Shown in pieces: positions 1 to 18,200 of a stretch of DNA of 64,000 bases (positions are counted from its first letter, which is position 1; every line of letters starts with the position of its first letter). Source of the DNA: an uncultured Acidobacteriota bacterium (GTDB lineage: Bacteria > Acidobacteriota > Thermoanaerobaculia > Multivoradales > UBA5704); the NCBI GenBank assembly GCA_963770895.1, contig CAVYRF010000001.1:1600001-1664000 (forward strand). Reading direction: 5' to 3'. Made by a program: the position numbers and the translations under genes. Under the pieces are notes generated by a model. The model saw only the letters and a list, made by a program, of their open reading frames with translations. It did not search any database and had not been told where the DNA came from.

Positions 1-608
1 AGCCGAGCGGCGAATGCACCAGGGCGTCGAGCGGGCCGTAGGTTTCGCGGCAGAAGCACAGGTAGTTGACGACCGCGGCGTGGGTGACGGCGACGCCCTT
101 GGGCAGCCCGGTCGACCCGGAGGTGTAGAGGACGTAGGCGAGCTGGTCGCGGTCCACGGCCGGCGGCTGGTGCGGTGGATGCGTCGGGTCCGGGTCAGGC
201 AGGGGTCGGTCGAGCCGGAGGGTGGGCAGGTCCAGGTCGGCATCGCCGTCGGTGAGCAGGCAGGCGACGCCGGCGTCGCGCGCCATCCACTCGCGTCGCC
301 GGCGCGGCAGGTTGGCGTCCAGGGGCACGTAGGCGCCGCCGGCCTGGAGCACGGCGAGGAGCGCGGCGACCATGTCGGGGGAGCGGCGCAGGGAGACGCC
401 GACGCGCGCTTCCGGGCCGACGCCGTGGCGGGCGAGCTCGCGGGCCAGGCTTCCGGCGCGGTCGGCCAGCTGGCGGTAGCTCCACCGCCGGCCGCCGTGG
501 CGCACGGCGGCCGCCTCGGGGTGGCGCTCCGCCGCGGCGGCGAACAGACCGTGGACGGTGGCGTCCGGCTGCCGCCGGCGGCACGCCCCGCGGGCCCGCT
601 GCAGCAGC
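1..608. repeat. Near-identical copy of A-domain DNA at 24225-24832
   Basis: Direct alignment at offset 24224 shows about 16 mismatches over about 608 nt, counted by eye. Confidence 0.9.
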
Positions 609-1762
609 CATTCACGCTCGTCCGCGCCGACCATGCGGAGCGCACCGATGGCGGCTCCCGGCGCCGCGAGCATCGCGCCGACGGCCCCGGCCAGGCGCTC
701 GGCGAGCAGCAGCACGTAGCTCTCGGCGAACAGGCGCGGGTCGTACGCCAGGGCCGCCCGCAGCTGCCCGCCGCCGCGCACCGCGCTCAACTTGAGCGCG
801 AAGCGGTCGACGCACGCCGTGGCCGCGACCACCGCGACCGGTGCGGTTCCGTCCTCCCGGCCGCGATCGTCGAAAAACTCGAAGGCGTGGCGAAAGAAGG
901 GGAGTCCCTCGCGCACGTAGGAGTCCTGCAGATCGCGCGCCTCGTCCAGCTCGGCGGCGAAGCGCGCCGTCACCTGGCGCACGGTGGCCGCCGGTTCGGC
1001 CGTGGCGGCGAAGGGGACAAAACGCGCCAGCAGGCCGACGACGTTGCCCAGCGACTCGTAGCGGCGGCCGTCGCAGAGCACGCCGAGCGCCAGGTCGGCC
1101 GGCGCGCCGCTTGCCGCCAGCACCACCCGCCAGGCGGCGAGCAGCAGCGCCTCCGCTGCATCGGGGAGCGGCGCCAGCGGCAGGCTGCGCGGCGCAAAGC
1201 TCCCTTGCGGCGCCGGCTCCTCGCCGGGCAGCCACTCCTGGGCGCAGCGCGAGCCCTGGCGCTGCTGCCAGTGCCCGCGATGGGCGCGGGCCTCCGGCGT
1301 GTCGGCGACCTCGTTGGCCCAGGCGGCGTAGTCGGGGTATTGCGTCGGCTCGCCGGCCGGCTCGCCCGCCAGCTCGCGCCGCAGCTCGCCGGCCAAGGCG
1401 AGCAGGCCCTGCCGGTCCGCGTGGAGCGCCGGCAGCCGGAGCCGCAGCAGGTGCCCGGCCGGCTGGACGCTGAGGGAGGCGTGGACCAGGGGGCCCACCT
1501 CCCACCGTGGCGTGGCGTCCTCCGCGTCCCAGGCCACGCCGCCGTCGCCGACCACCTGGAGCGGCAGCCGCAGCCCGGGTGCCGAAGCGAACACGGTGCG
1601 CAGGATCTCCAGGCGCGCGGTGACGGCGGCGACCGCCGCGCGCACCGCCAGCGGGTCCACGGCGGCGTCGATGCGCAACGCCAGCTCGGCGCGGCCGGCC
1701 TCGCTCGTCGCGAGGTTCTGCCAGACCACGGCCTGCTGCGGCGAGAGTTGGTAGCCCTCCAC
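1..1762 (-). CDS. NRPS, partial (runs off left edge): interface-type C-like domain + adenylation domain (probably Asn)
   Basis: GTG at 1762 with AGGAG 7 nt upstream. Translates VEGYQLSPQQAVVW...LRLPALHADRQG...QYPDYAAW, then A-domain motifs LQAGGAYVPLD and YVLYTSGSTGLPKG. The A region is near-identical to the Asn A domain at 24225-24832. Not in the ORF track because there is no stop in the window. Confidence 0.88.
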   Translation of the reverse strand, partial: MEGYQLSPQQAVVWQNLATSEAGRAELALRIDAAVDPLAVRAAVAAVTARLEILRTVFASAPGLRLPLQVVGDGGVAWDAEDATPRWEVGPLVHASLSVQPAGHLLRLRLPALHADRQGLLALAGELRRELAGEPAGEPTQYPDYAAWANEVADTPEARAHRGHWQQRQGSRCAQEWLPGEEPAPQGSFAPRSLPLAPLPDAAEALLLAAWRVVLAASGAPADLALGVLCDGRRYESLGNVVGLLARFVPFAATAEPAATVRQVTARFAAELDEARDLQDSYVREGLPFFRHAFEFFDDRGREDGTAPVAVVAATACVDRFALKLSAVRGGGQLRAALAYDPRLFAESYVLLLAERLAGAVGAMLAAPGAAIGALRMVGADEREWLLQRARGACRRRQPDATVHGLFAAAAERHPEAAAVRHGGRRWSYRQLADRAGSLARELARHGVGPEARVGVSLRRSPDMVAALLAVLQAGGAYVPLDANLPRRRREWMARDAGVACLLTDGDADLDLPTLRLDRPLPDPDPTHPPHQPPAVDRDQLAYVLYTSGSTGLPKGVAVTHAAVVNYLCFCRETYGPLDALVHSPLG

Positions 1763-1766
1763 GCTG

Positions 1767-4700
1767 TCACTCCTCGGGAGCGCCGGCGGGCGCGGTCACC
1801 GGCCGCCGCCTGCTGGTGCCCAGCCTGCCGCGCGCGGCCTCGGCGTAGCGCCGCCGCTCGTGGCCGGCGAGCGCCGTGGCGGCGACTTCGCCGATGGGTG
1901 CGTCCTGCCAGGCGGGCAACCCGTCACAGACCGCCGCCAGCGCATCGAGCAGCAGCGCGGCGTGCTCGGCGTCGAAGCGGTCCTCGTCGTAGCGGATGAA
2001 GCAGTCGAGCTCGCCGCGGGCGCGCACCGTGAGCACCAGCGGGTAGCTCTCGGTGAGCCGCAGCTCCACCTCGCCGATGCGCAGCCCCGCGACCGTGGCA
2101 GCGACGGCCTGGTCCAGCGGGTAGTTCTCGAAAACGAAGAGGGTCTCGAAGAGCGGCTCGCCCGCGGGCACCTCGCTCCACGAGCGCACGCGGGGCAGCG
2201 GCGCGTGCTCGTGCCGCCGCATCTCCACCTGCTCGGCCTGGAGCCGTGCCAGCCAGGCCATCAGCGGTTCGTCGCCCGCCACCGCGACCCTCACCGGCAG
2301 GGTGTTGATGAACAGGCCCACCATCCGGTCGCTGCCCGGCAGCTCGGCCGGGCGCCCCGCGACGACGGTGCCGAAGAGCACCTCGCGGCGCTCCATGAAG
2401 TGGGCGAGAACCAGCGCCCAGGCGCCCTGCACCAGGGTGTTGAGCGTCAGCTGGCGTTCCCGGCCCAGGCGCGCCAGCCGCTCGACGGCGCCGATGTCGA
2501 TGCGGCGCTCCTGCTTGCGGTGGCTGGCGCCCGCCGCGGGTCGTCCGGCGGCGGGAGCGCGGTCGAAGCGCAGCCGGCCGCGGGCGTGCCACCCCGCCAG
2601 CCGGCGGCGCCAGTAGCGTTCGGCCGCGCCCAGGTCGCGCCGACGCAGCCAGTCGACGTAGCCGCGAAACGGCGGCGCCGGCGCCGCCTGCAATCCGCTG
2701 CCCTCCAACGCCGCCGCGTAGCCGGTGAAGACGTCGGCGAGGACCAGACCGTTCGACCAACCGTCGAGGATCAGGTGGTGGCTGGTCCAGACCAGGCGCC
2801 AGGCGTCGCCGGCCGTGCGCACCAGGTGGAGCCGCAACAGCGGCGCCGCCGCCAGGTCGAAGCCCCGCACCCGGTCGTCGGCGAGCAGGCGCTCCCAGCG
2901 GCCGGCCAGTTGCGCGGCGTCCAGGCCGCGCCAATCGTGGCTCGCCAGCGGCACGGTCGCCTGGTGGTGGACCCGCTGCAGCGGCTCGCCCGCGCCGCTC
3001 CAGTCGAACGCGGTGCGCAGCGCCGGGTGGCGCGCCACGGCGCCCTGCCAGGCCCGCGTCAGGGCCTGCACGTCGAGCGCCCCGTCGATGCTGCAGGTGA
3101 GCTGCACGACGTAGAGGCCGGGCTCGCCGCGGTGCAGCACCTCGAACAGGACGCCCTGTTGCAGCGGCGAAAGTGCGTAGGCGTCCTCGCTCTCCGCTCC
3201 CTCCACCCAGCCGCCGCGCGGCGCCGCGTCGGGCCGGCTCGCCTCGGCCAGCCGCCGCAGCTCGCCGACGAAGCCCGCGGCCAGCGCCGCGACCGTCGAG
3301 CGGTCGTACAGGTTGCGGCTGAACGCCCAGGCCGCCCGCAGGCGCCCGCCGGCGACGCGGGCGTTGACCTGGAAGAGGTGGGTGAGCCGGCCGCGCTCGT
3401 CCTGCGGCGAGCCGATCGGCTCGTCCGCGAGGTCGAACAGGGGTGCCTCGCCCAGCGCCCGGTCGAGCTGTCCCAGGTAGTTGAAGCTCACCTGCGCCGG
3501 CGGGCGCTCGCGCAGCGCGGCTGCCACGTCGCTGTGCGGCCGGCCGTAGCGCAGCAGACCGTAGCCCAGGCCCTGGCGCGGCAGCCGGCGCAGCGACTCC
3601 CGGACGGCGCGCACGGCGTCCAGGGCATCTCCGGCCGCTGGCAGGTCGAGCGCCAGCGGCGCCCGCACGGTGAACCAGCCGACCGTGCGCGAGACGTCCA
3701 TCCCGTCGAGGTCGGCGCGGCCGTGCCATTCGCGGTCGACCACCAGCGTGCGCTCGCCCGTCCAGGCGGCGAAGGCGCGGGCGAGCGCGGCCAGCAGCAC
3801 GGCGTCGATCGCGCCGTCCCAGGTCTCGGCGGCGCCGCGCAGCAGGGCGGCGGTCTCGTCGGCGGCAAGCTCGGTTTCGACCGTCTCGCCGCCGGCCACG
3901 CGGTCGTCGCCGCCGGGATGGTCGACCGGCAGCGGGCGCACCGCCCGGCCGCTTTCCCCCAGCCAGTAGGTCATCTCCGCCGTCACCGCGGGCGACCCGG
4001 CGTGGCGGGCGAGCGTTTCGGCCCAGGCGCGGAAGGAGGCGGTCTTCGCCGCGAGACGCGCCGGCGCGCCGCCCAGGAGCTGGCGGCAGGCCGTCTGCAG
4101 GTCGTCGAGCAGGACGCGCCACGACACCCCGTCCACCGCCAGGTGATGCACGGCCACCATCAGGCGCCGGCCGCGCGCGCCGAGGTCGAATGCGGCGGCG
4201 CGCAGGAGCGGCCCGCGGCCGAGGTCGAGGCTCGCCTGGACGGCGCGGGCGCACGCCGTGAGCGCCCGGCCCTGCCGCGCCTCGCCCAGCCCGGCCAGGT
4301 CGATCTCGCACAGCGCGGCGCGTTCGCCCGCCGGCGCATGGGCCTGCCGCCAGCCCGCCGCGCCGGGCGCGAAGCGCAGGCGCAGGGCGTCGTGGTGTGC
4401 CAGCAGGTGGTCGAGCCCCCGGCGCAGCACCGCGGCGCCCACCGGCGCCGCCAGGCGCAGCAGCACAGCCTGGTTCCAGTGGCTGGGGTTGGGCGGCGCG
4501 GTGTCGAAAAACCAGCACTGGACAGGCGTCAGCGGCACCGGCCCCTGGACGGCTCCCTGCTCGGCGGCGGCGGCCGGCGTGGCGGCGCTGCCGGTGACAG
4601 CCGCATTGGCGGCCATGGCGGCGAGCGCCGCGACGGTGGGGCTGTGGAACAGGTCTCCGGGCGTCAGCAGGATCCCCGCCTGGCGGGCACGCGCGACGAT

Positions 4701-7388
4701 CTGCACGCTCACGATCGAGTCTCCCCCCAGGCGGAAGAAGTTGTCTTCGACGCCCACGCGCGGCAGGCGCAGCACGCCGGCCCAGATCTGCGCCAGCGTC
4801 TGTTCGACCGGGGTGCGCGGCGCCACGTAGCCGGCGGCGGCCGGCGCCGGAGCGGGGAGCGCCCGGCGGTCCACCTTGCCATTGGCGGAGAGCGGCAGCC
4901 GCGGCAGGACGACGCAGGTATCCGGCAGCATGTGGGCCGGCAGCTGCAGCGCCAGGTGCTCGCCGAGCTCCGCCGCCGCGAGGGCCGCCCCTGGCGCCGC
5001 CGCCACCCAGGCCACCAGCCGCCCCTCGAGCTTGGCCACCGCCGCGGCCGCCACCCGCGGGTGGCGGCGCAGGGCGCTCTCGATCTCGCCCAGCTCGATG
5101 CGGAAGCCGCGGATCTTGACCTGACCGTCCTGGCGCCCGAGGAACTCAAGGGCGCCGTCGAGCCGCCAGCGGGCCAGATCGCCGGTGCGGTAGAGGCGCG
5201 CGCCGGGAGCGGCGGCAAAAGGATGCGGCAGGAAGCGCTCGGCCGTCAGGTCGCCACGCCCCAGGTAGCCGCGCGCCAGCCCGGCGCCGCCGACGTACAG
5301 CTCCCCCGCGGCGCCCGCCGGCGCGGGCTCCAGCCGGGAGTCCAGCACCCAGACCTCGGCGTTGGCGATGGGGCGGCCGATGGGGACGCTCTCCAGACGC
5401 TCGTCCCCGGGCAACAGCTCGTGGGCGGTGCAGCCGACCACCGTCTCGGTCGGGCCGTATTCGTTGATCAACCGCCGCCCGCGCCGCCAGCCCAGCCAGG
5501 CGACGGCGCCGCGCCCCAGCGCCTCGCCGCCGATCACCACCACGCGCTCGCCCAGCTCGTCGGCCGAGAGCAGCTGGGCGAGCGCCTCCAGGTGCGCCGG
5601 GGTGAGCTTGAGCAGCGCCGGCCCGCCGGGTTGGCGGAGGGCGGCGGCGAGCGCCTCGATCCCATCTGCCAGAAGCGTCACCGCGCGGCCCGCCAGCAGC
5701 GGCCCCCAAAGGCTGGTCACGGTCAGGTCGAAGCCCAGCGGCGAGCTCACCGCGGCGTCCAGGGCGCCGTAGGCGTCGCGGCACCAGAGCAGGTAGTTGA
5801 CGACGCCGCCGTGGGTCACCGCGACGCCCTTGGGGCGGCCGGTCGAGCCCGAGGTGTACAGGACATAGGCCAGGCTGTCGGCGGTCGCCGCCACCGCCGG
5901 CGGCGCCGGCGGGCAATCGCTCGCCGCCGCCGTCTCCTCCAGGTCCAGGCGCAGGGCCGGCAGCCCGAGATCCGCGCCGTCTCCGTCGCCGCTGAGGACC
6001 AGGGCGACGCCCGCGTCGCGCGCCATCCACTCGCGCCGCGCGCGCGGCAGGGTGCCGTCCAGCGGGACGTAGGCGCCACCCGCCTTGAGTACCGCGAGCA
6101 GCGCCACGATCATCTCCGGCGAGCGGCTGGCGGCGACTCCGACGCGCGACTCCGCGCCGGCGCCGCGGCGCACCAGCTCGCGGGCCAGGCCGTTGGCGCG
6201 CCGATCGATGTCGCCAAAGCTCCACTCCTGTCCGCCGCGGCGCACCGCCGCCGCCTCAGGCCGCCGGCGCGCCGCGGCCTCGAACAGGCCGTGCAGGGTG
6301 GCGGCGGGGTCGCGCTCCACCCGCGCTCCCGCCGCCTGCGCCGCCAGCCACCGGCGCTCGCCGGCGCCGGCGTCGCCGCCGGCAAACCGCTCGAGCAGCC
6401 AGCCGGCGCCGCGGGCGTCGAAGGCTTCCGGGTCGTAATAGAGCGTCGCCCAGGAGCGCTCGGGGGTCCGCACCACGGTCAGGCCGAGCTTCCAATCCTC
6501 GGCGAAACAGTAGAGGTCGACCAGCTCCGGCCCCTGCCAATCGATGCCCTCCCAGCCGATGGGGCGCCGCGCCGCGCCGGCCGGCGATCGTGGCGCCGGC
6601 GGCGATGTCGGCGCCGCGCCGGCCGGCGCCCCGTTGCACGGTCCGAGCGTGTGCCGCAGCTCGTCGAACTCGCGCCCCGGCGTCACCGCCGCGATCGCCG
6701 GGGCCGGCTCGCCGGTGAGCCGCGCCAGCAGCTCCTGCCAGCGCCCCAGGCCGGCCGCCGCGGCGGCCGCCGGCAGCTCGGCCGACGCCGTGGCGATGCG
6801 CTCGCTGCGGGTATCGCGTTCGAGCGGCAGGGTGACGGACCCGGCCGGCTCGGCGGCGGCAGCCGGCCGCCCCTCCTGGTGCAGCCATTCGGAGTACTGG
6901 AGGTGCTGCACCACGTCGGCACCAGGAGGGCTCCCGGCGCAGCAGCCGGCGACGTCCGCCAGCAGGATGCGCAGCGAGTCGCTGTCGGCGGCGAGCGCCG
7001 GCAGGGTGACGACCAGGATGGACGCCGCGCCCTGCCCGGCAGCGTGCGCCCAGCAGGCGCGCAGCAGCGGACCGGCGGCAAAGTCGAACGGCGCCGCCCG
7101 TTCCTCGGCGAGCAAGCGCGGCAGTGCGGCGGCGGCGTCCGCCTCCCGCCAGGCGAAGCTGCCGGCGGCGTGGATCACCTGCATCGGCTCGCTGCGCCCG
7201 GTGGGGACCACGAAGGTGGTGCGCAGCATCTCGTGGCGCTCGACGGCGAACGCGAGGGCGCGGCGCAGCGCCGGCGCGTCGACGCCGCCGGGCAGCCGCA
7301 CCGCGGCCTGCGCGCGGTGCGCTTCGCGATGGCGCCAGGCCCACAGCCGTGCCTGGCGCGGCGAGGCGCGGAACGCTTGCCCGGCCAT
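1767..7388 (-). CDS. NRPS: I(interface)-A(Asn)-T-E-C
   Basis: N-terminal FRASPRQARLW and LPALAAD in place of HHxxxDG. A motifs YTSGSTGRPKG and NEYGPTE, specificity code read as DLTKVGEVGK (Asn). T is LGGDSI, E is HHLAVDGVSW, terminal C is HHLILDGWS. Confidence 0.93.
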   Translation of the reverse strand: MAGQAFRASPRQARLWAWRHREAHRAQAAVRLPGGVDAPALRRALAFAVERHEMLRTTFVVPTGRSEPMQVIHAAGSFAWREADAAAALPRLLAEERAAPFDFAAGPLLRACWAHAAGQGAASILVVTLPALAADSDSLRILLADVAGCCAGSPPGADVVQHLQYSEWLHQEGRPAAAAEPAGSVTLPLERDTRSERIATASAELPAAAAAAGLGRWQELLARLTGEPAPAIAAVTPGREFDELRHTLGPCNGAPAGAAPTSPPAPRSPAGAARRPIGWEGIDWQGPELVDLYCFAEDWKLGLTVVRTPERSWATLYYDPEAFDARGAGWLLERFAGGDAGAGERRWLAAQAAGARVERDPAATLHGLFEAAARRRPEAAAVRRGGQEWSFGDIDRRANGLARELVRRGAGAESRVGVAASRSPEMIVALLAVLKAGGAYVPLDGTLPRARREWMARDAGVALVLSGDGDGADLGLPALRLDLEETAAASDCPPAPPAVAATADSLAYVLYTSGSTGRPKGVAVTHGGVVNYLLWCRDAYGALDAAVSSPLGFDLTVTSLWGPLLAGRAVTLLADGIEALAAALRQPGGPALLKLTPAHLEALAQLLSADELGERVVVIGGEALGRGAVAWLGWRRGRRLINEYGPTETVVGCTAHELLPGDERLESVPIGRPIANAEVWVLDSRLEPAPAGAAGELYVGGAGLARGYLGRGDLTAERFLPHPFAAAPGARLYRTGDLARWRLDGALEFLGRQDGQVKIRGFRIELGEIESALRRHPRVAAAAVAKLEGRLVAWVAAAPGAALAAAELGEHLALQLPAHMLPDTCVVLPRLPLSANGKVDRRALPAPAPAAAGYVAPRTPVEQTLAQIWAGVLRLPRVGVEDNFFRLGGDSIVSVQIVARARQAGILLTPGDLFHSPTVAALAAMAANAAVTGSAATPAAAAEQGAVQGPVPLTPVQCWFFDTAPPNPSHWNQAVLLRLAAPVGAAVLRRGLDHLLAHHDALRLRFAPGAAGWRQAHAPAGERAALCEIDLAGLGEARQGRALTACARAVQASLDLGRGPLLRAAAFDLGARGRRLMVAVHHLAVDGVSWRVLLDDLQTACRQLLGGAPARLAAKTASFRAWAETLARHAGSPAVTAEMTYWLGESGRAVRPLPVDHPGGDDRVAGGETVETELAADETAALLRGAAETWDGAIDAVLLAALARAFAAWTGERTLVVDREWHGRADLDGMDVSRTVGWFTVRAPLALDLPAAGDALDAVRAVRESLRRLPRQGLGYGLLRYGRPHSDVAAALRERPPAQVSFNYLGQLDRALGEAPLFDLADEPIGSPQDERGRLTHLFQVNARVAGGRLRAAWAFSRNLYDRSTVAALAAGFVGELRRLAEASRPDAAPRGGWVEGAESEDAYALSPLQQGVLFEVLHRGEPGLYVVQLTCSIDGALDVQALTRAWQGAVARHPALRTAFDWSGAGEPLQRVHHQATVPLASHDWRGLDAAQLAGRWERLLADDRVRGFDLAAAPLLRLHLVRTAGDAWRLVWTSHHLILDGWSNGLVLADVFTGYAAALEGSGLQAAPAPPFRGYVDWLRRRDLGAAERYWRRRLAGWHARGRLRFDRAPAAGRPAAGASHRKQERRIDIGAVERLARLGRERQLTLNTLVQGAWALVLAHFMERREVLFGTVVAGRPAELPGSDRMVGLFINTLPVRVAVAGDEPLMAWLARLQAEQVEMRRHEHAPLPRVRSWSEVPAGEPLFETLFVFENYPLDQAVAATVAGLRIGEVELRLTESYPLVLTVRARGELDCFIRYDEDRFDAEHAALLLDALAAVCDGLPAWQDAPIGEVAATALAGHERRRYAEAARGRLGTSRRRPVTAPAGAPEE

Positions 7389-7392
7389 GGCT

Positions 7393-10300
7393 TCAGAAGC
7401 TCCTCATGTCGCCCATCGCCACCAGCATCCGGCGCGGCCCCTGGTAGGCGTTGCGGCCGTGCGCGGTCAGCATGTTGTCGACCAGCAGCATGTCGCCGCG
7501 CTGCCAGGGGACGACGACCTCGATGCTGCGATAGACCGCCAGGATCTCGCCCATGTCATCGTCGGCGATCGGCGAGCCGTCGCCGTAGCAGCAGTTGCGG
7601 GGAAAATCTTCGGGCGGGAAGAGAGCGGCCATCGACTGGCGGGTTTCGGGGTCCAGGCACGACGGGTGCCAGTGCTGGGCCTGGTTGAACCAGCAGCTCT
7701 CGCCGGTCACCGGATGGCGCAGCACCGCTGGCCTCACCGCCACGGTGCGCAGGCTGTCGCCGGGCCGCCACTCGCAGCCCATGCGGCCTTGCCGGCAGTA
7801 CGCCTCGGCTTCCTCCCGGCGCTCCGTCCCCAGCACCTTCTGCCAGCTCAGACCGAGCTCCGGCCGGTAGGTTCTGATGTACATCACGCCGCGTTCCGTG
7901 AAGCGGTCGCGCAGGCGCGCCGGCAGGCGGCGGTAGACCTCGCGGCTGTCGGCGAGCGGCATCTCGCCGCCCGCGGCCGCTGGCACGGCGCAGCCGAACC
8001 AGATCTGCCCCGGCCACTGGTGATTGAAAGAGTTTTCGTTGTGCCACAGGAGCACCTTGGCGGGCGAAAAGGCGACGGGCGTGTAGACCTTGCCGCTCAC
8101 CGATTCGCGGTGGTGCTCGCCGTTTTCGTCGTAGAGCGGCGAAGTGAGCGTCTCGGCCACGGGCTCGAAGTCGGCTTCGGGATCCACCGGAAAGCCGCGA
8201 AACAGGACGGCGCCGTGGCGCGCCAGCTGAGCGCGGACCAGGTCGCGGTTGGCGGCGGCCCAACCTGCCAGGTCGACGCCCGGACCGAGCGGGCGCACCA
8301 CCAGCGGCAGCGAGGCGCCGGGCACGAGCGGCGCCGTGTCGATCAGGTCCGCGGCGTCCAGACTGACGGGTTTGGGGGTGACCAGCTTGAATGTCATCGG
8401 TTTCGCTCCTTGCCCTGCGCAGGGTGACGCCAGCGCCGTCCGCGCGATCTCCGCCAGGCTCGCCTCGGGATGCGCCAGAGCCTCGTCCAGGACGCGGACG
8501 AAGCCGTCCAGCAAGGCGGCGACGTCGGCGGCGGCGAAGCGCTCCGGGTCGTACATCGCCTCGCATCCGTAGGGGTCGCTGGGGACGACGGTCAGGGTCA
8601 GCGGGAAGTTGTTCTGATCGAAGCCGCGCAGGTCGGTGAAGCGCACCTGCAGGCGCTCGTCCAGCTCCGCCCCGGCGCGGCTGAGGGAGGGAAAGTTCTC
8701 GAACACGAAAAGGGTGTCGAAGAGCGGCTCGCCGGCGGGCAGCTCGCTCCAGGGCTGGATGGCGGCGAGCGGGGTGTGCTCGAACTGCCGCATCTCGACC
8801 TGCTCGGCCTGCAGGCGCCGCAGCCAGGGGACCAGCGGCTCGCCGCCGTCGACCGCGACGCGCGCCGGCAGGGTGTTGATGAACAGGCCCACCATGCGCT
8901 CGACCTCCGGCAGGGCGGCCGGCCGGCCGGCGACGACCGTGCCGTAGACCAGGTCGCGCGCGCCGGCGGCGCCGGCCAGGACCAGCGCCCAGACCCCCTG
9001 GAGAACGCTGTAGACGGTGAGCTGACGCTCGCGGGCGAAGCGCGCCAGGGAAGCGGTGGCCGCCGCCGTCAGCCGCCGGCGCTCCTTGCGATCGCTGGCG
9101 CCGGCGGTGGCGCGGCCGGCGCCGGCGCCGCGGTCGATGCGCAGGCGGTTGCGCGCGGCAAATCCGGCCAGACGCCGGCGCCAGAATCGTTCCGCCTCGC
9201 CCAGGTCCTGGCCGGCGAGCCAGGCGACGTAGTCGCGGTACGGGCGCACCGCCCCCAGCGACGGGCTCAAGCCGCGCGCCAGCGCCTCGTAGGCGGCGAA
9301 CATCTCGTCCAGCACCACCGGTCGCGACCAGCCGTCCAGGATGATGTGATGATTGGTCCACACCGCCTGGTGCAGATCGTCCGCCAGCTGCAGCAGGCTG
9401 AGCCGCATCAAGGGCGCCGCGGCGAGGTCGAAGCCGCGCGCGCGGTCGGCGGCGAGAAAAAGGTCGATGCGGCGCTCGCGCTCGCTCGCCGGCACGCCGC
9501 GCCAGTCGTGGCGTTCGACGCGCAGGTCCACCTGGCGATGGACGACCTGCAGCGGCTCGTGGCCGCCGTGCCAGTCGCAGGCGGTGCGCAGCGCCGGGTG
9601 CCGTTCGACGACCAGGCGCCAGGCGCGCTCGAAGGCCGCGGCGTCGAGCGCGCCGGTGACGCGGCAGGTGACCTGCTCGACGTAGACGCCGGTTTCGCCG
9701 GCGTGCAGGGCGTGAAACAGGATCCCCTGCTGCAGCGGCGTGAGCGGATAGGAGTCCGCCAGGCCGCGCGCCGCGCTGCCGACGCCCGCCAGGCGCCGCA
9801 GCTCGGCGGCGAAGCGGGCGGCATGGCCCGCGATGGTTTGGCGGCGGTGCAGATTGCGGCTGAAGGTCCAGGTCGCGCGCAGCCGGCCGGCGCTGACGCG
9901 GGCGGTGATCTGCAGCAGGTGGGTGCGCAGGCCGCGCTCGTCCTGCGGCGGGCCGGTGGGCTCGTCGGCGAGCGCGAAGAGCGCGCCGTCGCCGGCACTG
10001 GCGCCGGCTTGGCCGTCGATCTGGCCGAGATAGTTGAAGCTCACCTGCGGCCGCACCGCCGGCCGCTGCCCGGCTGCCTGGAGGGCGCGCCGCACGGTTT
10101 CGCGGACGGCGGCCAGGGTGGCCGCGGCGTCGGCGTCGGCGAGCGTCGCCGGCAGCTCGACCGGCACGCGGGCGGTGAACCAGCCGACGGTGCGCGACGT
10201 GTCGAGGTCGGGAAAGGCGCCGCGGCCATGGCCCTCGACGTCCACCCAGAGCGGGCGGTCGCCGCTCCAGGGCGCCAGCGCCAGGACCAGCGCCGCGAGC

Positions 10301-13300
10301 ATCGCGTCGCGCATCTCCTGCAGCAGGGCGCCGGTCTCCGCCGCCGTCAGCTCGACCTCGACCAGGTCGTTCGACCCCACCGTGTTGGCGCCTGCCGGAT
10401 GATCGAGCGGCAGCGGCGCGATCTGCCGCGGGGCGTCGCCGGGCGGTGCGCTTCCCGGCTCGCCGCCCTGCTGCCGGTTGCGCTCGGCCCACAGCTCGGC
10501 CCAGCGCCGGTAGGAGGCGGTCCTGGCGGGCAGCGCGACGGGCTCGCCGCGCTGCAGCTGCGCGCTGGCGGTTTCCAGGTCTTCGATCAGGATGCGCCAC
10601 GAGACCGCGTCCACCACCAGGTGGTGGATGACCAGCAGCAGGCGGCGGCCGCGCGCGCCGAGGTCGAACAGCGCGGCGCGCAGCAGCGGCCCGCTGCCGA
10701 TGTCGAGGCCGGCCTGGGTCTCGCGGCCGAGCGCGGCCAGCGCCCGGTCCTGGGCCGCGGCGTCTTGCGCGGCCAGGTCGTGCTGGGCGATGGGCGGGGT
10801 TTGCGCGGACTCGCCGGCATCGGCGCAGGTCTGCTCCCAGCCGGCGGCGCCAAGGTGAAAGCGCAGGCGCAGGGCGTCGTGGTGCGCCAGCAGCTGATCC
10901 AGGGCGCGCCGCAGGAGCACGGCGGGAAGGGGCCTGGCCAGGCGCAGCAGGATCGCCTGGTTCCAGTGGTTGGGATTGACCGCCTGGAGATCGAAGAACC
11001 ACCGCTGGATGGGGGTGAGCGGCAGCGGCCCGGCGGCGGCCTGCGGTGCCGCCGCGGGCTCCGCCGCCGCGCCGTCGGCGACGGCCGCCAGCCCGGCGAT
11101 CGTGGGATGCAGGAAGATCTGCATCGGCGTCAGCCGCAAACCGGCCTGATGCGCCCGCGCGATGATCTGGATGCTGAGGATCGAATCGCCGCCCAAGGCG
11201 AAGAAGCTGTCCTCGACTCCGACCTCCGGCAGCCGCAGCACGCCAGCCCAGATCTGCGCCAGGATCGTTTCGGTCGGCGTGCGCGGTGCGATGTGGGCGG
11301 CGGCGGCCGCCGCCGCCGCGGTGGGCTCGGGCAGCGCCCGGCGGTCCAACTTGCCATTGGCGGTGCGCGGCAGCTCCGGCAGGAAGACCAGGGCAGCGGG
11401 TAGCATGGGTTCCGGCAACGTCCGCTCCAGGTGCTCGCGCAGTGCGTCGGCGGTGAGCGCGCCGTCGGCTGCCACCCAGGCCACCAGCCGCCCCTGCCGC
11501 GCCGCCGCCGCCGCCGCCCGCACTTGCGGATGGCGCAGCAGCGCCGCCTCGATCTCGCCCGGCTCGACGCGATAGCCGCGGATCTTCACCTGGTCGTCGC
11601 GCCGGCCGAGGAACTCGAGCTGGCCGCCGGCGCCGTGGCGCGCCAGGTCGCCGGTCCGATACAGGCGCTCCCCGGCCGCGCCGCAGGGGTGCGGCACGAA
11701 CCGCTCCGCCGTCAGGTCGCCGCGGCCGACGTAGCCGCGCGCCACGCCCGCGCCGCCGGCATGGAGCTCGCCCGTCACGCCCGCCGGCAGCGGCTCCAGG
11801 TTGTGGTCCAGCACCAGGGCGATCGCGTTGGCCAGCGGGCGGCCGAGCGGCACGACGTCGCCGCCGGGCGGCGGCGGCAGGCGGCCGGCGACCACGCCCA
11901 CCGTCGTCTCGGTGGGACCGTAGTGGTTGAACACCTCGCACCGTGGTGCGAGCGCCGCGATCTGCCGCGCCAGCGCCGGCGGCAGAACCTCGCCGCCCAT
12001 CACCAGGAACCGGCGCGGCAGGCTGCGGCGCGATTGCAGCAGGGCTGCCATGTGCGACGGCACGATCTTGACCGCGTCGACGGCGTGCCGCTCCAGGTAG
12101 GCGGCGTAGCGCTCCGCGTCGGCGGCGTCGGCGCGCGGTACCAGGTGCAGCGTGCCGCCTGTCAGCAGGCTGGGAAACACCATGGTGTTGCACAGGTCTG
12201 CCGCCAGGGTCGACACCACGGCAAAGCACAGCCCCTCCGGCAAGGCCAGCAGCTCGCGCACCGCCTCGCAGTAGCTGGCGAGCGCCGCGTGCGGCACGCC
12301 GACCGCCTTGGGGGCGCCGGTCGATCCCGAGGTGAACAGCACGTAGCAGAGGTTCTCCGGCGCCGCCTCGCCTCCCTGGTGCGGCGGCGCGGCTTGCGGG
12401 CGGGGGAGCCGGGGGGCGCGGCGCTGCGGCCGGACCGCCGGCGCCAGGTCGTCGACCCAGACCAGCGGCAGGCCGGTCGCGGGCAGGCGCTCGGCCAGCG
12501 CCCGCTCGGCGACCACGCAGCGGGCTCCCGCCGCCGCCAGCTGCTCGCCCAGGCGGTCCGGCGGCGCCTGCTCGTCGAGGGGGGCGTAGGCGCCGCCGGT
12601 CTTGAGGATGCCCAGCATGCCCGCCACCCACGCCGGCGAGCGCGAGGCGAGCAGACCGGCCACGGCGTCGGGCCCCAGGGCGTGCTCGGCCGCCAGGCGG
12701 CGGGCGATGGCGGCAGCCCAGGCGTCCAGCTCGCCGTAGGTGAGCGCGCCGGCGTCGCCGGCGACGGCGACGCGATCGGGGGTGCGCAAGGCCTGCTCCT
12801 CGATCCGCCGGTGCAGCGGCCGGCGGTCGGCGCCGGGCCGCTGCGGGCCGGCCGCCGCCGCCAGCGCCGCCCGGCGATCCTCGTCGCCGAGCAGCCGCAT
12901 GCCGGCGCCGGGCGCCGCGGGGGTGCACGCCGCGCTCGCGGCGAGGGTTTGCAGGCAGCGCGCAAAGAGCGCCGCGGCCTCGCCGTCGACGCGGCCGCGG
13001 TCGTGGCGCAGCTCCGCCCGCAGCGCGCCGCCGGAGCGGACGGCGAGGAGCTTGAGCGCGGCGCCCGCGGGGCCGGCCTGCACCCGCTCCACGGCAAAGC
13101 GGGCGCCGGCGCTGGCGATCGCCGCGGGGAGCTCCAGGTACTCGAATTCGTACGCTGCCGCGGCGGCGTTCGGCTCCTCCAGCGGCAGGTGTTCCACCAG
13201 CCCGGCAAGGGCGTCGAGCCGGACCGCGATGGCGGCGGCGAGAGCGCTGAAACTGCCATCGAGATCCAGCTCCAGGCAGAGCGGCAGGCGCCGCGCATAG

Positions 13301-14202
13301 GCCCCGAACGCCGCCCCCAGCTGCTCGTCGCGGCCGCTCGCCACGTAGGCGAGCCGCAACGCGCCGCCGTCGCCGCCGCCGCCGCCGTCGAAACGCTGCA
13401 GGAGCGTCGCCCAGACCGCGAGCAGCGCCGCTTCCCCGGCGGCGCCGGCACCCGCCAGGTCGAATCGCACCGTGCCGAGCAGGCCGCCGCCGGCCGGCGG
13501 CGCCGCGTCGTCCGGCTCTGCCGTGCCGCCGCGCCGCGCGCCGCGCAGCGCCGGCCGGCAGAGGGGGCGCGGCGCGATCCGCGTGTTCTCTTCCCAATAC
13601 CGCTGCGCCGCTTCGCCGGGGCCCGCCTGCCCAGCGCCGCCGGCGTCCAGCTCTTCCTGCCAGGCGGCGTAGTCGGCGTACTGGATGGCGCTCTCCGCGT
13701 CCGCGTCCGCGGCGCCGCCGTAGGCCCGCGCGATCGCACTACCCAGCAGCGACGCGGTCCTGGCGTCGGCGCAGAGTCCCGGCAGGCTGAGCAGCAGGGC
13801 GTGGCGGCCGGCTGGCAGGCGCAGCAGCCCGGCGCGCAGGGGCGGTTCCTCCGGCGGGCCGGGCGGCCGCGCCGCCTCGCTGTCGAACAGATCCGCGACC
13901 GCCGTCGCGGCGTTCGCCGCCGAGGCGGCGGTCAGGTCGCGCTCCCACCAGCTGAAGTCGGGGGCCTCGCGGAACTCCTGCAGCGGAAAGCGCAGCCCGG
14001 GGTGGTCGAGGAAGACGGCGCGCAGGATCTCCTGGCGGCCCACCACCTCCCCCAGGGCGGCGCGCAACGCGGCCGCGTCGAGAGCCCCCGCGATCTCGAG
14101 CAGGCAGACGGTGCGCGGCACGAGGTCGGGCCCGCCGCTCGCGACGCAGAGGGCGCGCTGCTGGGTCGACAGGCGGTAGCCCTGGACCAGGTCGGTGGTC
14201 AC
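7393..14202 (-). CDS. NRPS: I(interface)-A(Asp)-T-E-C-TauD (fused Fe(II)/2-oxoglutarate beta-hydroxylase)
   Basis: GTG at 14202 overlaps the upstream stop (GTGA). GYRLSTQQRAL and LPGLCAD mark the I domain. Code DLTKVGHVGK (Asp), T LGGDSI, E HHLVVDAVSW, C HHIILDGWS. The C-terminal TauD has HNE...DNMLTAHGR. Confidence 0.92.
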   Translation of the reverse strand: MTTDLVQGYRLSTQQRALCVASGGPDLVPRTVCLLEIAGALDAAALRAALGEVVGRQEILRAVFLDHPGLRFPLQEFREAPDFSWWERDLTAASAANAATAVADLFDSEAARPPGPPEEPPLRAGLLRLPAGRHALLLSLPGLCADARTASLLGSAIARAYGGAADADAESAIQYADYAAWQEELDAGGAGQAGPGEAAQRYWEENTRIAPRPLCRPALRGARRGGTAEPDDAAPPAGGGLLGTVRFDLAGAGAAGEAALLAVWATLLQRFDGGGGGDGGALRLAYVASGRDEQLGAAFGAYARRLPLCLELDLDGSFSALAAAIAVRLDALAGLVEHLPLEEPNAAAAAYEFEYLELPAAIASAGARFAVERVQAGPAGAALKLLAVRSGGALRAELRHDRGRVDGEAAALFARCLQTLAASAACTPAAPGAGMRLLGDEDRRAALAAAAGPQRPGADRRPLHRRIEEQALRTPDRVAVAGDAGALTYGELDAWAAAIARRLAAEHALGPDAVAGLLASRSPAWVAGMLGILKTGGAYAPLDEQAPPDRLGEQLAAAGARCVVAERALAERLPATGLPLVWVDDLAPAVRPQRRAPRLPRPQAAPPHQGGEAAPENLCYVLFTSGSTGAPKAVGVPHAALASYCEAVRELLALPEGLCFAVVSTLAADLCNTMVFPSLLTGGTLHLVPRADAADAERYAAYLERHAVDAVKIVPSHMAALLQSRRSLPRRFLVMGGEVLPPALARQIAALAPRCEVFNHYGPTETTVGVVAGRLPPPPGGDVVPLGRPLANAIALVLDHNLEPLPAGVTGELHAGGAGVARGYVGRGDLTAERFVPHPCGAAGERLYRTGDLARHGAGGQLEFLGRRDDQVKIRGYRVEPGEIEAALLRHPQVRAAAAAARQGRLVAWVAADGALTADALREHLERTLPEPMLPAALVFLPELPRTANGKLDRRALPEPTAAAAAAAAHIAPRTPTETILAQIWAGVLRLPEVGVEDSFFALGGDSILSIQIIARAHQAGLRLTPMQIFLHPTIAGLAAVADGAAAEPAAAPQAAAGPLPLTPIQRWFFDLQAVNPNHWNQAILLRLARPLPAVLLRRALDQLLAHHDALRLRFHLGAAGWEQTCADAGESAQTPPIAQHDLAAQDAAAQDRALAALGRETQAGLDIGSGPLLRAALFDLGARGRRLLLVIHHLVVDAVSWRILIEDLETASAQLQRGEPVALPARTASYRRWAELWAERNRQQGGEPGSAPPGDAPRQIAPLPLDHPAGANTVGSNDLVEVELTAAETGALLQEMRDAMLAALVLALAPWSGDRPLWVDVEGHGRGAFPDLDTSRTVGWFTARVPVELPATLADADAAATLAAVRETVRRALQAAGQRPAVRPQVSFNYLGQIDGQAGASAGDGALFALADEPTGPPQDERGLRTHLLQITARVSAGRLRATWTFSRNLHRRQTIAGHAARFAAELRRLAGVGSAARGLADSYPLTPLQQGILFHALHAGETGVYVEQVTCRVTGALDAAAFERAWRLVVERHPALRTACDWHGGHEPLQVVHRQVDLRVERHDWRGVPASERERRIDLFLAADRARGFDLAAAPLMRLSLLQLADDLHQAVWTNHHIILDGWSRPVVLDEMFAAYEALARGLSPSLGAVRPYRDYVAWLAGQDLGEAERFWRRRLAGFAARNRLRIDRGAGAGRATAGASDRKERRRLTAAATASLARFARERQLTVYSVLQGVWALVLAGAAGARDLVYGTVVAGRPAALPEVERMVGLFINTLPARVAVDGGEPLVPWLRRLQAEQVEMRQFEHTPLAAIQPWSELPAGEPLFDTLFVFENFPSLSRAGAELDERLQVRFTDLRGFDQNNFPLTLTVVPSDPYGCEAMYDPERFAAADVAALLDGFVRVLDEALAHPEASLAEIARTALASPCAGQGAKPMTFKLVTPKPVSLDAADLIDTAPLVPGASLPLVVRPLGPGVDLAGWAAANRDLVRAQLARHGAVLFRGFPVDPEADFEPVAETLTSPLYDENGEHHRESVSGKVYTPVAFSPAKVLLWHNENSFNHQWPGQIWFGCAVPAAAGGEMPLADSREVYRRLPARLRDRFTERGVMYIRTYRPELGLSWQKVLGTERREEAEAYCRQGRMGCEWRPGDSLRTVAVRPAVLRHPVTGESCWFNQAQHWHPSCLDPETRQSMAALFPPEDFPRNCCYGDGSPIADDDMGEILAVYRSIEVVVPWQRGDMLLVDNMLTAHGRNAYQGPRRMLVAMGDMRSF

Positions 14203-15263
14203 GGGCGCGGCTCCAGCTCGTGCTCGCCGCTCATCTGGCCCATGGCGACCAGGATCTTGCGCGGGCCGGTGAAGGGGTTGCGCGCGTGGGCGGTCATCAT
14301 GTTGTCGGCCAGCAGCACGTCGTGGCGCTGCCAGGGGGCCGCCACGGAGTTTTCGTCGTAGAGGCGGCGGATCTCGGCCACCACCTCGTCCTCGATCGCC
14401 GCGCCGTCGCCGTAGAGCACGTTGCGCGGCAGGTCGGGCGCCGCGAAGAGGGCGCGCACCGGCGCCTGCACGGCCTCCGGCAGGCAGGCGACGTGATGGA
14501 GCTGGATCTGGTTGAAGAAGAGCTTCTCGCCGGTGGCCGGGTGGCGCGCCACCGCGACCCGGCGCTGGCGGGTGGCAAGGGCGTCGCCCTTCCACTCGCA
14601 GGCGACCCCGGCGGCGCGGCAGGCCGCCTCGACCTCGCGCCGGTCGCCGGTGCGGAAGAACTCCTGCCAGCCGACGTCGATGCCGGGGATGAAGTTGCGC
14701 ACGTAGAGCAGACCCTGGCGCTCGAAGCGATCGGCCAGCTCGGCCGGCAGCCGGCGGTAGATGGCGCGGCAGTCGGCGACGACCGTCTCGCCGCCCGACT
14801 GCGGCGGCTGCACGCAGTAAAACCAGATCATCAGCGGCCAGCGGTCCATGTGCGAGCTTTCGTTGTGGAAGAGGATCGGCTGGTCGGGCGGGTAGGGGGT
14901 CGACTGGTAGATGCGCCCGGAAACCGTGCCGCGCGGCAGGTCGCCGTACTCTTCGAAAAGCGGCCCGAAGGCGGCGGCCAGCTGCTCGAAGGCGGCGGCG
15001 GAGCCGACGGCGAAGCCGCGAAACAGGATCGCTCCGTGCCGCGCCAGGCGCTGTCGCAGCACGTCGAGGTGCTGGCGCACGAAGCCGCCCAGGTCGACGT
15101 CGTCGAGGGCCGGTTGGAGCACCAGCGGCAGGGGATTGCCGGGGTGCAGGGTCGACTCGCGGGCGAGTTGCGCGGTCGAGACCTGGACCGCCTTGCGGCG
15201 TGCCGCCGAGCGCGGCGCGGGAGCGGCGGCGGGCGCCGCGTCAGGCGAATCTTTCGGTTGCAT
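14199..15263 (-). CDS. TauD/SyrP-like Fe(II)/2-oxoglutarate dioxygenase (NRPS-associated beta-hydroxylase)
   Basis: HGAILFRGF, facial triad HNE (FHNESSH) plus DNMMTAHAR, and FFNQ motif. ATG at 15263 lies inside the 3' end of the upstream NRPS. Confidence 0.9.
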   Translation of the reverse strand: MQPKDSPDAAPAAAPAPRSAARRKAVQVSTAQLARESTLHPGNPLPLVLQPALDDVDLGGFVRQHLDVLRQRLARHGAILFRGFAVGSAAAFEQLAAAFGPLFEEYGDLPRGTVSGRIYQSTPYPPDQPILFHNESSHMDRWPLMIWFYCVQPPQSGGETVVADCRAIYRRLPAELADRFERQGLLYVRNFIPGIDVGWQEFFRTGDRREVEAACRAAGVACEWKGDALATRQRRVAVARHPATGEKLFFNQIQLHHVACLPEAVQAPVRALFAAPDLPRNVLYGDGAAIEDEVVAEIRRLYDENSVAAPWQRHDVLLADNMMTAHARNPFTGPRKILVAMGQMSGEHELEPRP

Positions 15264-18200
15264 GGGGGAAGCTCTCCGCGGCGCTGAAAGCGCACGCCAG
15301 ACGGTCAAGACGGATCTCGGGGGATGCCACGGCGCGCTCGATCACCGCCGCGTAGGCGGCGGCGAAGCGCCGCACAGTGGCCGGTACGAAGAGGTCGGGG
15401 TTGAAGACCCAGGTCTGGTGGAGGCGCCGCTGGTCGTCCTCGTGGGGGAAGAGCGCCAGGTCGAAGCGCGAGGTCTCCTGCGCCGCGTCCTCGACCTCGA
15501 CGGCGAGGTCGGCCAGCGCCAAGGCCGGCCGCTCGGCGTTCTGCAGCACGAACAGCAGGTCGAACAGCGGCGTGCGCGCCGGATCGCGCCGCGGCCGCAG
15601 CGCGCTGACCAGCTGGTCGAACGAGACGTCCTGGTGGTCGTAGGCGTCCAGCGTGGTTTCGCGCACCCGCCGCAGCAGCTCGCGGAAGGTGGGGTTTCCC
15701 GACAGGTCGGTGCGCAGCACCAGGACGTTGACAAAGAAGCCGATCAGACCTTCGATCTCCGTCCGGTTGCGGTTGGCGACGTCGGTGCCGATCACCAGGT
15801 CCTGCTGGCCGGTCAGCGCGAAGAGAAAGGCCAGCAAAGCCGCCAGCAGGGTCATGAAGAGCGTCACGCCTGCGCCGCGGCTGAGCGCCGCGAGGGCCGC
15901 GGCCAGCTCCGCCGGCAAGGCTGCCGCGTGGCGCGCGCCGCGGTGGGTCTGCACCGGCGGGCGCGGCCGATCGAGCGGCAGGTCCAGCGCCGCCGGCGCG
16001 CCCGCCAGCCGCCGCTGCCAGTAGGCAGTCTGCCGCCGCAGCTCCTCTCCCTGCAGCCACTGCCGCTGCCACGCCGCGAAGTCCGCGTACTGGATCGGCA
16101 GCTCGGGCAGCCGCGGCGGCGCGCCGCCGCGGGCGCGCTCGTAAAGATGCGTCACCTCGCGCACCAGCACGCCGATCGACCAGCCGTCGGCGACGACGTG
16201 GTGCATGGTGAGCAGACACGTGTGCTCGGCGCCGTCCAGCCGCAGCAGGGTGGCGCGCCACAGCGGCCCGCGCGCCAGGTCGAAGGGGAGTGCCGCCTCC
16301 TGGGCGGCGCGGTGCGCCGTCTCGCGCCGCCGCGCCCGCTCGCCGAGCCCGGCCAGGTCGACGACGGCGACGGGGATCGCCGGCTGCGGCGCGATCTCCT
16401 GGCTGGGCAGGCCGTCGAGGACCGGAAAGCGGGTGCGCAGCACCTCGTGGCGCAGGGCGAGATGGCGCAGGCTCAGGCGCAGCGCCGCGACGTCCAGGGC
16501 GCCGCGCATGCGCAGGGCGATCGGCATGTTGTAGAACGGGCTGCCGGGCTGCAGCTGATCGACGAACCAGAGGCGCTGCTGCGACAGCGACAGCGGCAAC
16601 GGCCGGTCGCGCGGTGCCCGTTCGATCGGCGGCGCGGCGGCGCGCGGCGACTGCCGGGCCAGCTCCACCTGCGCCGCCAGGTCCGCCACCGTCGGGTGCT
16701 CGAAGAGCAGCCGCAGCGGCAGCTCCAGCCCCAGGGCGCCGCGCAGCCGTGCGACCGCCTGCGCCGCCAGCAGCGAGTGCCCGCCAAGGGCGAAGAAGTC
16801 GTCGTCGACACCGACCCGCGGCAGGCGCAGCACCTCGGCCCAGACTCCTGCCAGGATCTCCTCGACGGGCGAGCGCGGCGCCGCCAGCGCCGCCGCCGCG
16901 GGCGACGCCGGCGCCGGCTCCGGCAGCGCCCGGCGATCCACCTTGCCGGCGGCGGTCAGCGGCAGGTGCGGCAGGAACACGAATGCCGCCGGCACCATGG
17001 CGTCGGGCAGCAGCTGGGCGACGTGCCGGCGCAGGCGCTCCGCCATGCCGGGCGCGGCCGGGTCTGCCGGCGGCTCGCCGGCAGCGACCAGCCGCACCCA
17101 GGCCACCAGCCGCTCGCCGTCCCCGTCGCCGGCGGCCGCCACCACCGCCTGGCGGACCGCCGGGTGCTGTTCGATCGCCGCTTCGATCTCGGCGGGCTCG
17201 ATGCGATGCCCGCGCACCTTGACCTGGCCGTCGAGGCGGCCGGCGAGCTCCAGCTCGTGCCGCGCCGTCCAGCGCGCCCGATCGCCCGTGCGGTACATGC
17301 GGCTGCCCGGCTGGTCGCCGAACGGCTCCGGCAGGAAGCGCTCCGCCGTCGCCGCCGGCTGGTCCAGGTAGCCGCGGGCGACGCCGGCTCCGGCGATGAA
17401 CAGCTCGCCGTAGACGCCGACCGGCAGCGGCGCCCAGCGCTCGTCGAGCACGTGGACGCGGACGTTGGCGATCGGCCCGCCGATCGGCGGCGGCTCGCCG
17501 GCGGCGAGCGGCCGCGAGATGGTGGCGCAGACCGTGGTTTCGGTGGGTCCGTAGGCGTTGAGCATCCGCCGCCCGCGCGCCCAGCGGTCGGCGAGCGCCG
17601 GCGGGCAGCGCTCGCCGGCCACCACCAGGGTGGCGAGCCGCGGCAGCGGGATCGCTTCCGGTGCGGGCGGCGCCGGCAGCAGGTGGAGCACCGACGGCAC
17701 CAGCGTGGCGGTCTGCACGGCGGCGCCGGCCAGCAGGTCGTACAGTGCCGCACCCGCGCCCAGCGCTTCAGGCGGCGCCAGGATCAGGCGGGCGCCGCAG
17801 GCGAGCGCCGTCGTCCACTCGGAAACCGCGGCGTCGAAGGCCGGCGAAGCGAACAGCAGCACGGCGCTGTCCGGCGTCACCGTGAAGGCCGCGATCTGGG
17901 CGAGCGCCAGGTTGCAGACGCTGCGGTGGGTGACGGCCACGCCCTTGGGCGTCCCCGTCGAACCCGAGGTGTAGATCACGTAGGCGAGGTTGTCCGGCGC
18001 CGCCGCCGGCGGCAGATCTGCGGAGGGCTGGGCGGCGGCGCGCCTGCCCAGGCCGTCCAGGGCGACGACGGGCACCGGCGGGGCGGGGAACGTGGCGCGC
18101 AGCGACTCCTGGGTCAGCAGCAGGGCCGCGCCGCTGTCGTGCAAGGCGCGGGCGAGCCGCGGGCGCGGATGCGCCGGGTCGAGCGGCACGTAGGCGCCGC

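Follow-up and report, generated by a model that had tools for sequence, protein, structure and literature searches.

The fused hydroxylase of N2 and its internal start-like site

We analysed a stretch of 64,000 nucleotides (the window) from an uncultured Acidobacteriota bacterium of the lineage UBA5704 (GenBank assembly GCA_963770895.1, contig CAVYRF010000001.1, positions 1,600,001 to 1,664,000). The window carries a cluster of nonribosomal peptide synthetase (NRPS) genes, one of which, N2, ends in a TauD-type hydroxylase domain. At the seam between this domain and the condensation (C) domain before it, a Shine-Dalgarno (SD)-like hexamer precedes an in-frame ATG. The features of the seam are listed below, where A and T stand for adenylation and thiolation domains, ORF for open reading frame and GC3 for the G+C content at third codon positions.

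8411-8406, minus strand: SD-like hexamer AAGGAG, read in the NRPS frame as the codons CAA GGA G..
8397-8395, minus strand: in-frame ATG, possible internal start for a free hydroxylase of 334 aa, in the frame of ORF 7393..14595
8389..8433, minus strand: 15-codon stretch of lowest GC3, 9/15 codons G/C-ending, A-rich and weakly folded, resembling an initiation region
8446..9756, minus strand: final condensation domain of N2, adjoining the seam on its upstream side, with HHIILDGWS at residue 1749
7396..8397, minus strand: TauD/TfdA-type Fe(II)/2-oxoglutarate hydroxylase domain P0002, 334 aa, C-terminal in N2 (PF02668)
7393..14202, minus strand: NRPS N2, 2269 aa, with interface-like, A, T, epimerization-like, C and TauD domains; likely start GTG 14202

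The minus-strand letters at the seam read ...GCAGGGCAAGGAGCGAAACCGATGACATTCAAG... / ...GGGCAAGGAGCGAAACCGATGACATTC..., and the spacer CGAAACCG of 8 nt separates AAGGAG from the ATG. From the ATG at 8397, 334 codons (P0002, 37.3 kDa) run to the TGA at 7395-7393. The ATG corresponds to residue 2067 of the translated ORF 7393..14595 and falls in the linker that joins TauD to the Condensation domain before it. Pfam recognizes three Condensation stretches, AMP-binding, PP-binding and TauD in this ORF, with the last Condensation at residues 1614-2050, TauD at residues 2100-2393 and no stop codon between them. The 3' end of the 16S rRNA of the same genome reads ...GGATCACCTCCTTTCT, and its tail CACCTCCTTTCT is complementary to AAGGAG; the hexamer at the seam thus has a canonical anti-SD partner. 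The duplex energy is -7.2 kcal/mol, and the distance to the in-frame ATG falls within the range of 5-10 nt looked for in an internal start. A preliminary description of this DNA had placed AAGGAG at 8406-8411 at such a distance from an ATG that marks the start of the TauD domain, and re-reading of the sequence confirmed its coordinates as well as its wording.

P0002 scores 146.2 bits against PF02668, above the curated threshold (cut-off 27), and its closest solved chain is 1y0z_A (E 2.4e-30). Enzymes of the TauD/TfdA family bind iron through a His-x-Asp/Glu ... His triad and 2-oxoglutarate through a distal Arg. In P0002, the residues H119, E121, H313 and R322 are invariant across 19 aligned homologs.

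Contigs of sequencing runs matched to the window were used as presence information only. A 151-nt contig from a soil metagenome of another study (run X3, record 20) spans 8321-8471 with zero differences, which indicates that the open frame at the seam is not peculiar to this assembly. Across 7300-9300, identical or near-identical short contigs occur in soil-metagenome runs from another study, so that this organism, or a strain very close to it, is present at low depth in soil samples. A scan of 7300-9300 that covered one promoter type revealed no sigma-70-like site and hence no hint of a separate hydroxylase transcript.

Composition and folding at the seam

The four lowest 15-codon GC3 windows of the ORF (n = 2242) all overlap the seam (0.60 vs 0.93). 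Folding is equally distinct: the 60 nt centred on the ATG have an energy of -8.6 kcal/mol, where in-frame windows average -25.3 (sd 6.4), and only 8 of 2214 such windows are as weak. The mRNA at the seam is therefore locally unstructured, as it should be at an internal start. With the peptide and the codon usage of the cluster held fixed, the probability of a GC3 of 9/15 or less is 2.5e-4 and that of AAGGAG is 0.0067. The hexamer is composed of the minor codons CAA (25/301 Gln) and GGA (64/813 Gly). AAA makes up 2 of the 46 Lys codons in the four megasynthase ORFs, and both of them flank the ATG, one two codons before it and the other eight codons after it.

The exact motif AAGGAG-N5-10-ATG occurs six times in the window, compared with 0.75 expected from shuffles. 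The other five matches are at 47971, 58810, 32466, 40523 and 40771. Those at 47971 and 58810 stand at or near the starts of long ORFs, the latter in frame with ORF 58729..60819, and the remaining three have short-ORF contexts. Two of them (40521-40536 and 40769-40784, minus strand) lie in a stretch of about 40260-41430 without long ORFs, where they would open ORFs of roughly 42 and 74 codons; they may be small genes or chance. The seam site is non-random in its coincidence with the domain boundary and in its local composition.

Fused and split relatives

Loci for comparison were drawn from 61 related genomes, from genome contigs (80 of 596 kept) and from metagenome contigs (80 of 164 kept). 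They comprise 194 loci with a full TauD domain, or 167 after de-duplication at 90%. TauD is fused in frame to a C domain in 76 of the 167 and is encoded by a split gene directly downstream of a C-domain gene in 37; the rest are 27 solo genes, 12 fusions to something else and 15 loci whose upstream DNA is cut by the contig end. Trees were built with uncharacterised relatives only. They require at least 22 switches between the fused and non-fused states among 140 rows, and 13 among 99 rows in the first, better-supported tree, where the window locus (L001) is one of 26 rows in a well-supported group in which every state is represented.

Individual loci place the boundary at the same point. In L019 the NRPS and TauD genes share a frame with one TAG between them, and GGAGG lies in the last NRPS codons. 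The stand-alone gene L017 starts with MDFQKFKTIKPKM, three residues ahead of the Met of the window (MTFKLVTPKPV), and the start of L192 also aligns within 3 residues of the window ATG. Because fused and split homologs alternate, a single TAG separates the genes of L019 and the start of L017 coincides with the seam, the origin of the seam by gene fusion is well supported by these alignments. The preliminary description had spoken of a recent gene fusion. The fusion part of this idea stands, whereas its age cannot be dated since no relative closer than 59% identity was found. A stop codon ahead of the ATG, which the same description had named as a mark to look for in homologous clusters, is present in many of them. 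The linker of L001 is unlike the common fused linker, as it is about 10 residues shorter and has its Met elsewhere, which suggests a separate fusion event, perhaps a young one.

Five loci from metagenomes and metagenome-assembled genomes (L040, L105, L143, L166 and L185) have a TauD domain of 50-54% identity fused to an N-terminal class-I methyltransferase instead. Such methyltransferase-TauD proteins account for five of the eight odd fusions examined, and a seam Met is retained in three of them. The genome of the window encodes a second NRPS with a fused TauD domain (L003, G000:C2:3723512-3724486; 45% identical, open frame of 3673 aa). The seam of L003 has the common linker form with the ATG at its usual position, a weak SD AGAGAG (-4.7 kcal/mol) and marked minima of both GC3 and folding.

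Retention of the start site in GC-rich fused loci

We defined GC-rich fused loci as those with a GC of at least 0.60, the seam zone as 23 codons, and an SD core as one lying 4-11 nt upstream of an ATG. An ATG with an SD core occurs in the seam zone of 23 of the 36 GC-rich fused loci, where the remaining blocks of those ORFs would predict 1.05. The start codon and the SD also come and go together: among the GC-rich fused loci both occur in 21, the start only in 3, the SD only in 3 and neither in 10 (Fisher p 1.7e-4). The SD-to-ATG spacing of the fused loci (5-11 nt, mode 7) is like that of true split genes, and start plus SD are found in 30/36 fused loci vs 15/23 stand-alone genes. A clade of eight loci that are all fused keeps start and SD in 8/8, with up to 1.13 substitutions per site between its members.

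Codon choice around the start follows the same pattern. In the seven codons before the start (24 loci with the start at the common position), Arg is encoded by AGR and CGN codons in a ratio of 21 : 13, as compared with 120 : 1864 elsewhere in those ORFs and 18 : 270 in equally charged control windows. AGR thus has a share of 62% of the Arg codons at the seam vs 6% elsewhere, a roughly ten-fold difference. A-ending codons for Glu, Lys and Gln are enriched three- to four-fold on both sides of the start. The GC3 dip at the seam recurs in 12 of 27 loci and the weak folding in 15 of 27 (p <= 0.05 for each). The GC-rich fused relatives have kept the site above chance and with a bias in synonymous codons. 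In these lineages the region seems to be kept beyond the prediction of neutral decay, which points to its continued use; constant renewal through repeated fission and fusion is the alternative. A universally conserved seam Met was a first impression that fell after 80 metagenome loci were added.

Origin and possible use of the seam site

The SD and ATG at the seam are best read as the translation start of a hydroxylase gene that used to stand on its own. Loss of the intervening stop codon would have joined this gene in frame to the upstream NRPS gene and left the region intact: the SD and the ATG still stand 8 nt apart, the codons there are A-rich minor ones and the mRNA hardly folds. Ribosomes are probably still able to load at the seam ATG. 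If they do, the locus would yield a free 37-kDa TauD hydroxylase in addition to the 2269-aa synthetase with its tethered copy. Actual initiation at the site is our inference, indirectly supported by the retention of start and SD and by the codon bias in GC-rich fused homologs, and we give about an even chance to the proposal that the old initiation region still supplies the free enzyme by internal initiation.

Several observations weigh against this proposal. SD-like strings before Met codons are not unique in a sequence of 72.7% GC, and the anti-SD duplex energy at the seam ranks 7th among the 87 in-frame internal ATGs of the four megasynthase ORFs. Synonymous resampling with the amino acids fixed leaves the SD energy of the window unremarkable (p 0.16), and the same resampling across homologs reaches p <= 0.05 in only 8 of 62 loci; much of the SD-likeness arises because the linker peptide is rich in Glu, Lys and Arg. 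An SD energy beyond the prediction of the peptide was dropped as a signal on account of this flat resampling, and the codon signal consists of the AGR and A-ending usage and of GC3. Among the fused loci, 31 of 76 have no seam-zone ATG. The low-GC fused loci, which are mostly cyanobacterial, have the SD core in 3 of 39, and Leu, Ile, Val or Ala often stands in for their Met, as would suit either a hydrophobic position in the linker or a relic in decay. The preliminary description had made its idea depend on conservation of the SD and ATG in homologs; this holds for the GC-rich fused loci (23/36, together with the codon bias) but not for the low-GC ones (3/39). The homologs are kin, hence Fisher p-values such as that given above overstate the evidence, and the argument from the all-fused clade depends on a FastTree topology and on parsimony. 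Among the loci collected from genomes, genome contigs and metagenome contigs, no relative above 59% identity was found, so that conservation of the exact window site cannot be checked. A young fusion could by itself explain pristine seam signals without selection.

The last point leads to the reading in which the site is an inert relic of a young fusion, that is, an old initiation region that has not yet decayed, at which the ribosomes that elongate along the 7-kb ORF keep initiation negligible and only the tethered domain matters. We consider this a real possibility, if a somewhat doubtful one. Fusion and fission are frequent on the tree, the shorter linker of L001 with its displaced Met suggests a separate event, the SD energy stays within the prediction of the peptide, and besides the ATG missing from 31/76 fused loci the SD is kept in 0/15 rows of the low-GC fused clades. 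However, the GC-rich fused loci keep start and SD at the rate of real genes and use AGR for 62% rather than 6% of their Arg codons, even in the deep all-fused clade, and such retention is hard to reconcile with neutral decay under strong GC pressure (GC3 0.93). Negligible initiation is also at odds with the report in bioRxiv 10.1101/520783 that bacterial ribosomes recognise an accessible SD and ATG in an unstructured stretch anywhere.

The seam might instead encode nothing more than a charged, flexible linker with a hydrophobic Met, whose rare codons slow the ribosome so that the C domain folds first, with the SD-likeness as a by-product. The peptide E-[KR]-x-x-x-x-M-[ED]-K-K is indeed seen across phyla, the cyanobacterial Met swaps with other hydrophobic residues, the GC3 dip and the weak folding are family-wide and the synonymous resampling is mostly flat. 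Yet the linker of the window lacks this motif and has SD and ATG all the same. The SD core, which pausing does not need, tracks the start codon (21/24 loci with a start vs 3/13 without), and in L008, L009, L011, L016, L048, L090 and L137 the Met lies at non-homologous places, each preceded at 6-9 nt by an SD of its own. As for the remaining low-GC3 windows of the ORF, they fall within TauD and the last C domain rather than at other inter-domain linkers, and a Met seam is also found with the methyltransferase as a different upstream partner. An origin of the site in linker function is therefore improbable in our view. We regard pure chance, an SD-like hexamer that happens to precede a Met codon in a GC-rich gene, as very improbable indeed. 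Six other in-frame ATGs of the four megasynthase ORFs match or beat the anti-SD energy of the seam, but seven such sites in about 9,300 codons correspond, by our own reckoning, to about 0.02 per 23-codon seam. Chance would also have to account for the rarity of the exact motif, for a position at the GC3 minimum of the ORF and near its folding minimum, for the coincidence with the start of stand-alone homologs, and for the recurrence of the feature in 23/36 GC-rich fused relatives.

The gene cluster and the third interface module

The other genes of the cluster around N2 are the following.

27842..31738, minus strand: polyketide synthase (PKS)
15241..26550, minus strand: NRPS N1, with a condensation domain at its end
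15263 (ATG)-14199, minus strand: stand-alone TauD paralog that shares 46% identity with the fused domain; SD GGAGAG 9 nt upstream, within the tail of N1
1767..7388, minus strand: NRPS N3, with interface-like, A, T, epimerization (E)-like and C domains and without a terminal TauD; ATG 7388
1..1762, minus strand: start of NRPS N4, interface-like and then A, continuing beyond the window; GTG 1762

The resulting layout is [..C][TauD][I-A-T-E-C-TauD][I-A-T-E-C][I-A-T..], with I for the interface-like domain. The genes are tightly coupled: the first 23 nt of the stand-alone TauD gene lie within the end of N1, and the N2/N3 and N3/N4 gaps are 4 nt. Where the stand-alone TauD gene meets N2, the stop of the former and the GTG of the latter at 14202 run together as GTGA, and GGAG precedes this GTG by 9 nt; the ATG of N3 at 7388 is preceded at 11 nt by GAGGAG within the end of the TauD coding sequence. 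All four true operon junctions have GGAG or GAGGAG 7-11 nt before ATG or GTG, inside the last codons of the upstream gene. The N2 seam is built like these junctions, and the sole difference is the missing stop codon.

N2, N3 and N4 each open with a domain in which HHxxxDG is replaced (LPGLCAD, LPALAAD and LPALHAD, respectively). Reitz et al. (2019) are said to define the 'interface' domain as a condensation-like domain without the HHxxxDG motif. The A-domain code, read at the specificity positions rather than with a curated predictor, is DLTKVGHVGK in N2 and DLTKVGEVGK in the first modules of N3 and N4; we tentatively take the former to be Asp-like and the latter Asn-like. The three interface-like domains share 27-31% identity in pairwise comparison, and a search for hydroxylase/interface pairs by means of these identities gave no clear pairing.

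The full N4 protein, read from L198 (249-11462, minus strand), has 3737 aa with an interface-like domain and three A-T modules. Its C-terminus (residues about 3161-3737) consists of a PD40 beta-propeller repeat and Peptidase_S9 of the prolyl oligopeptidase family, and no match to the Thioesterase family (PF00975) was found in the full protein. A group-1 glycosyltransferase domain lies between the PKS and N1 (frame 26229-29888, minus strand, residues 885-1041), and a second glycosyltransferase is found just past the end of the cluster (L197 2-1342, minus strand).

Searching the genome for TauD revealed no more than two copies within or close to the cluster, and no hydroxylase gene stands ahead of the third interface module, with which N4 begins. 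That a third interface module has no hydroxylase of its own, as the preliminary description had stated, is thereby borne out by three NRPSs with interface starts and two TauD copies. The same description suggested that a free form of the fused domain could act in trans on this module. It is reasonable that a free form would reach the N4 module, since the tethered domain would have to span all of N3, but service of the third interface module by the free enzyme remains a speculative role. The stand-alone TauD at 14199-15263 is the obvious alternative as the trans-acting enzyme and makes a free form of the fused domain unnecessary. Reitz et al. (2019) reportedly attribute the two hydroxy-Asp residues of alterobactin to a single integrated domain. 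A broader version of the idea would have GC-rich bacteria routinely make the integrated hydroxylase domains of siderophore-type NRPSs in tethered and free forms from one gene, through a selectively maintained internal start at the C/TauD seam, with the free copy serving non-adjacent interface modules, here N4. We think this version unlikely. In it, the retained start site would make fused and split forms interconvertible by one stop-codon mutation, and hence account for their frequent alternation.

Relation to known systems and significance

The NRPS-integrated aspartyl beta-hydroxylase domains of siderophore pathways reportedly go under the name IBH_Asp (Reitz et al. 2019). N2 resembles such systems (PtcB in potashchelin; CcsFGH and ccsJK in cyanochelins) in that its TauD domain is fused in frame after the condensation domain at the C-terminus of the NRPS and that the next protein, N3, opens with a condensation-like domain without HHxxxDG, followed by an Asp/Asn-type A domain. 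For the IBH_Asp type, the expected substrate is Asp bound to the carrier of the adjacent module. N2 differs in that the module after its fused domain has the apparently Asn-like code DLTKVGEVGK, vs the Asp-like code of N2 itself.

Fused C-TauD ends together with stand-alone paralogs in one cluster are published, and the distinction between the two forms is used for the prediction of stereochemistry (PMC7100376, PMC12628792, bioRxiv 10.64898/2026.07.24.740629 and PMC12971057). A stand-alone paralog in the cluster, as found here, is likewise described for potashchelin, cupriachelin and cyanochelin B in PMC7100376, PMC12628792 and bioRxiv 10.64898/2026.07.24.740629. The syringomycin family has stand-alone enzymes nested inside the integrated clade, according to PMC12971057. 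The passages of these four sources on integrated hydroxylases contain no mention of a start at the seam or of a free form. A full-text literature search, with few subscription papers and no supplements, gave no case of internal translation in an NRPS tailoring domain.

Elsewhere, such starts are described, with IF2 and ClpB among the cases. In bioRxiv 10.1101/520783, an in-frame internal start of E. coli ArcB releases the C-terminal domain (ArcB-C), and the internal-start product RpnE-C resembles an independently encoded protein. Like ArcB-C, the N2 seam has an SD-like element and a start codon within an ORF, just before a domain boundary, and the product would be the C-terminal part. The cases of ArcB-C, IF2 and ClpB have ribosome-profiling, reporter or western support, whereas the N2 seam is known from its sequence alone. 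The seam also shares its gene order, the position of the SD in the upstream tail and the hydroxylase N-terminus with split TauD genes (L019, L041, L095 and 14199-15263 of the window), unlike which it has neither a stop codon nor a frame change before the start.

Fused and stand-alone beta-hydroxylases serve to predict the stereochemistry and the number of hydroxy-Asp and hydroxy-Asn residues of siderophores from their gene clusters, and the current logic of prediction assumes that a fused domain acts only at its tether. If the seam site is inert, it is the ordinary footprint of a gene fusion. If the free enzyme is made, it could explain clusters with more interface modules than hydroxylases, here three vs two; structures predicted by genome mining would have to be revised, and the engineering of assembly lines would have to consider a hidden start. 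The seam of N2 would then offer a clear example of an ancestral gene start that stays in use within a fused gene, in a family that frequently flips between the fused and the split state.

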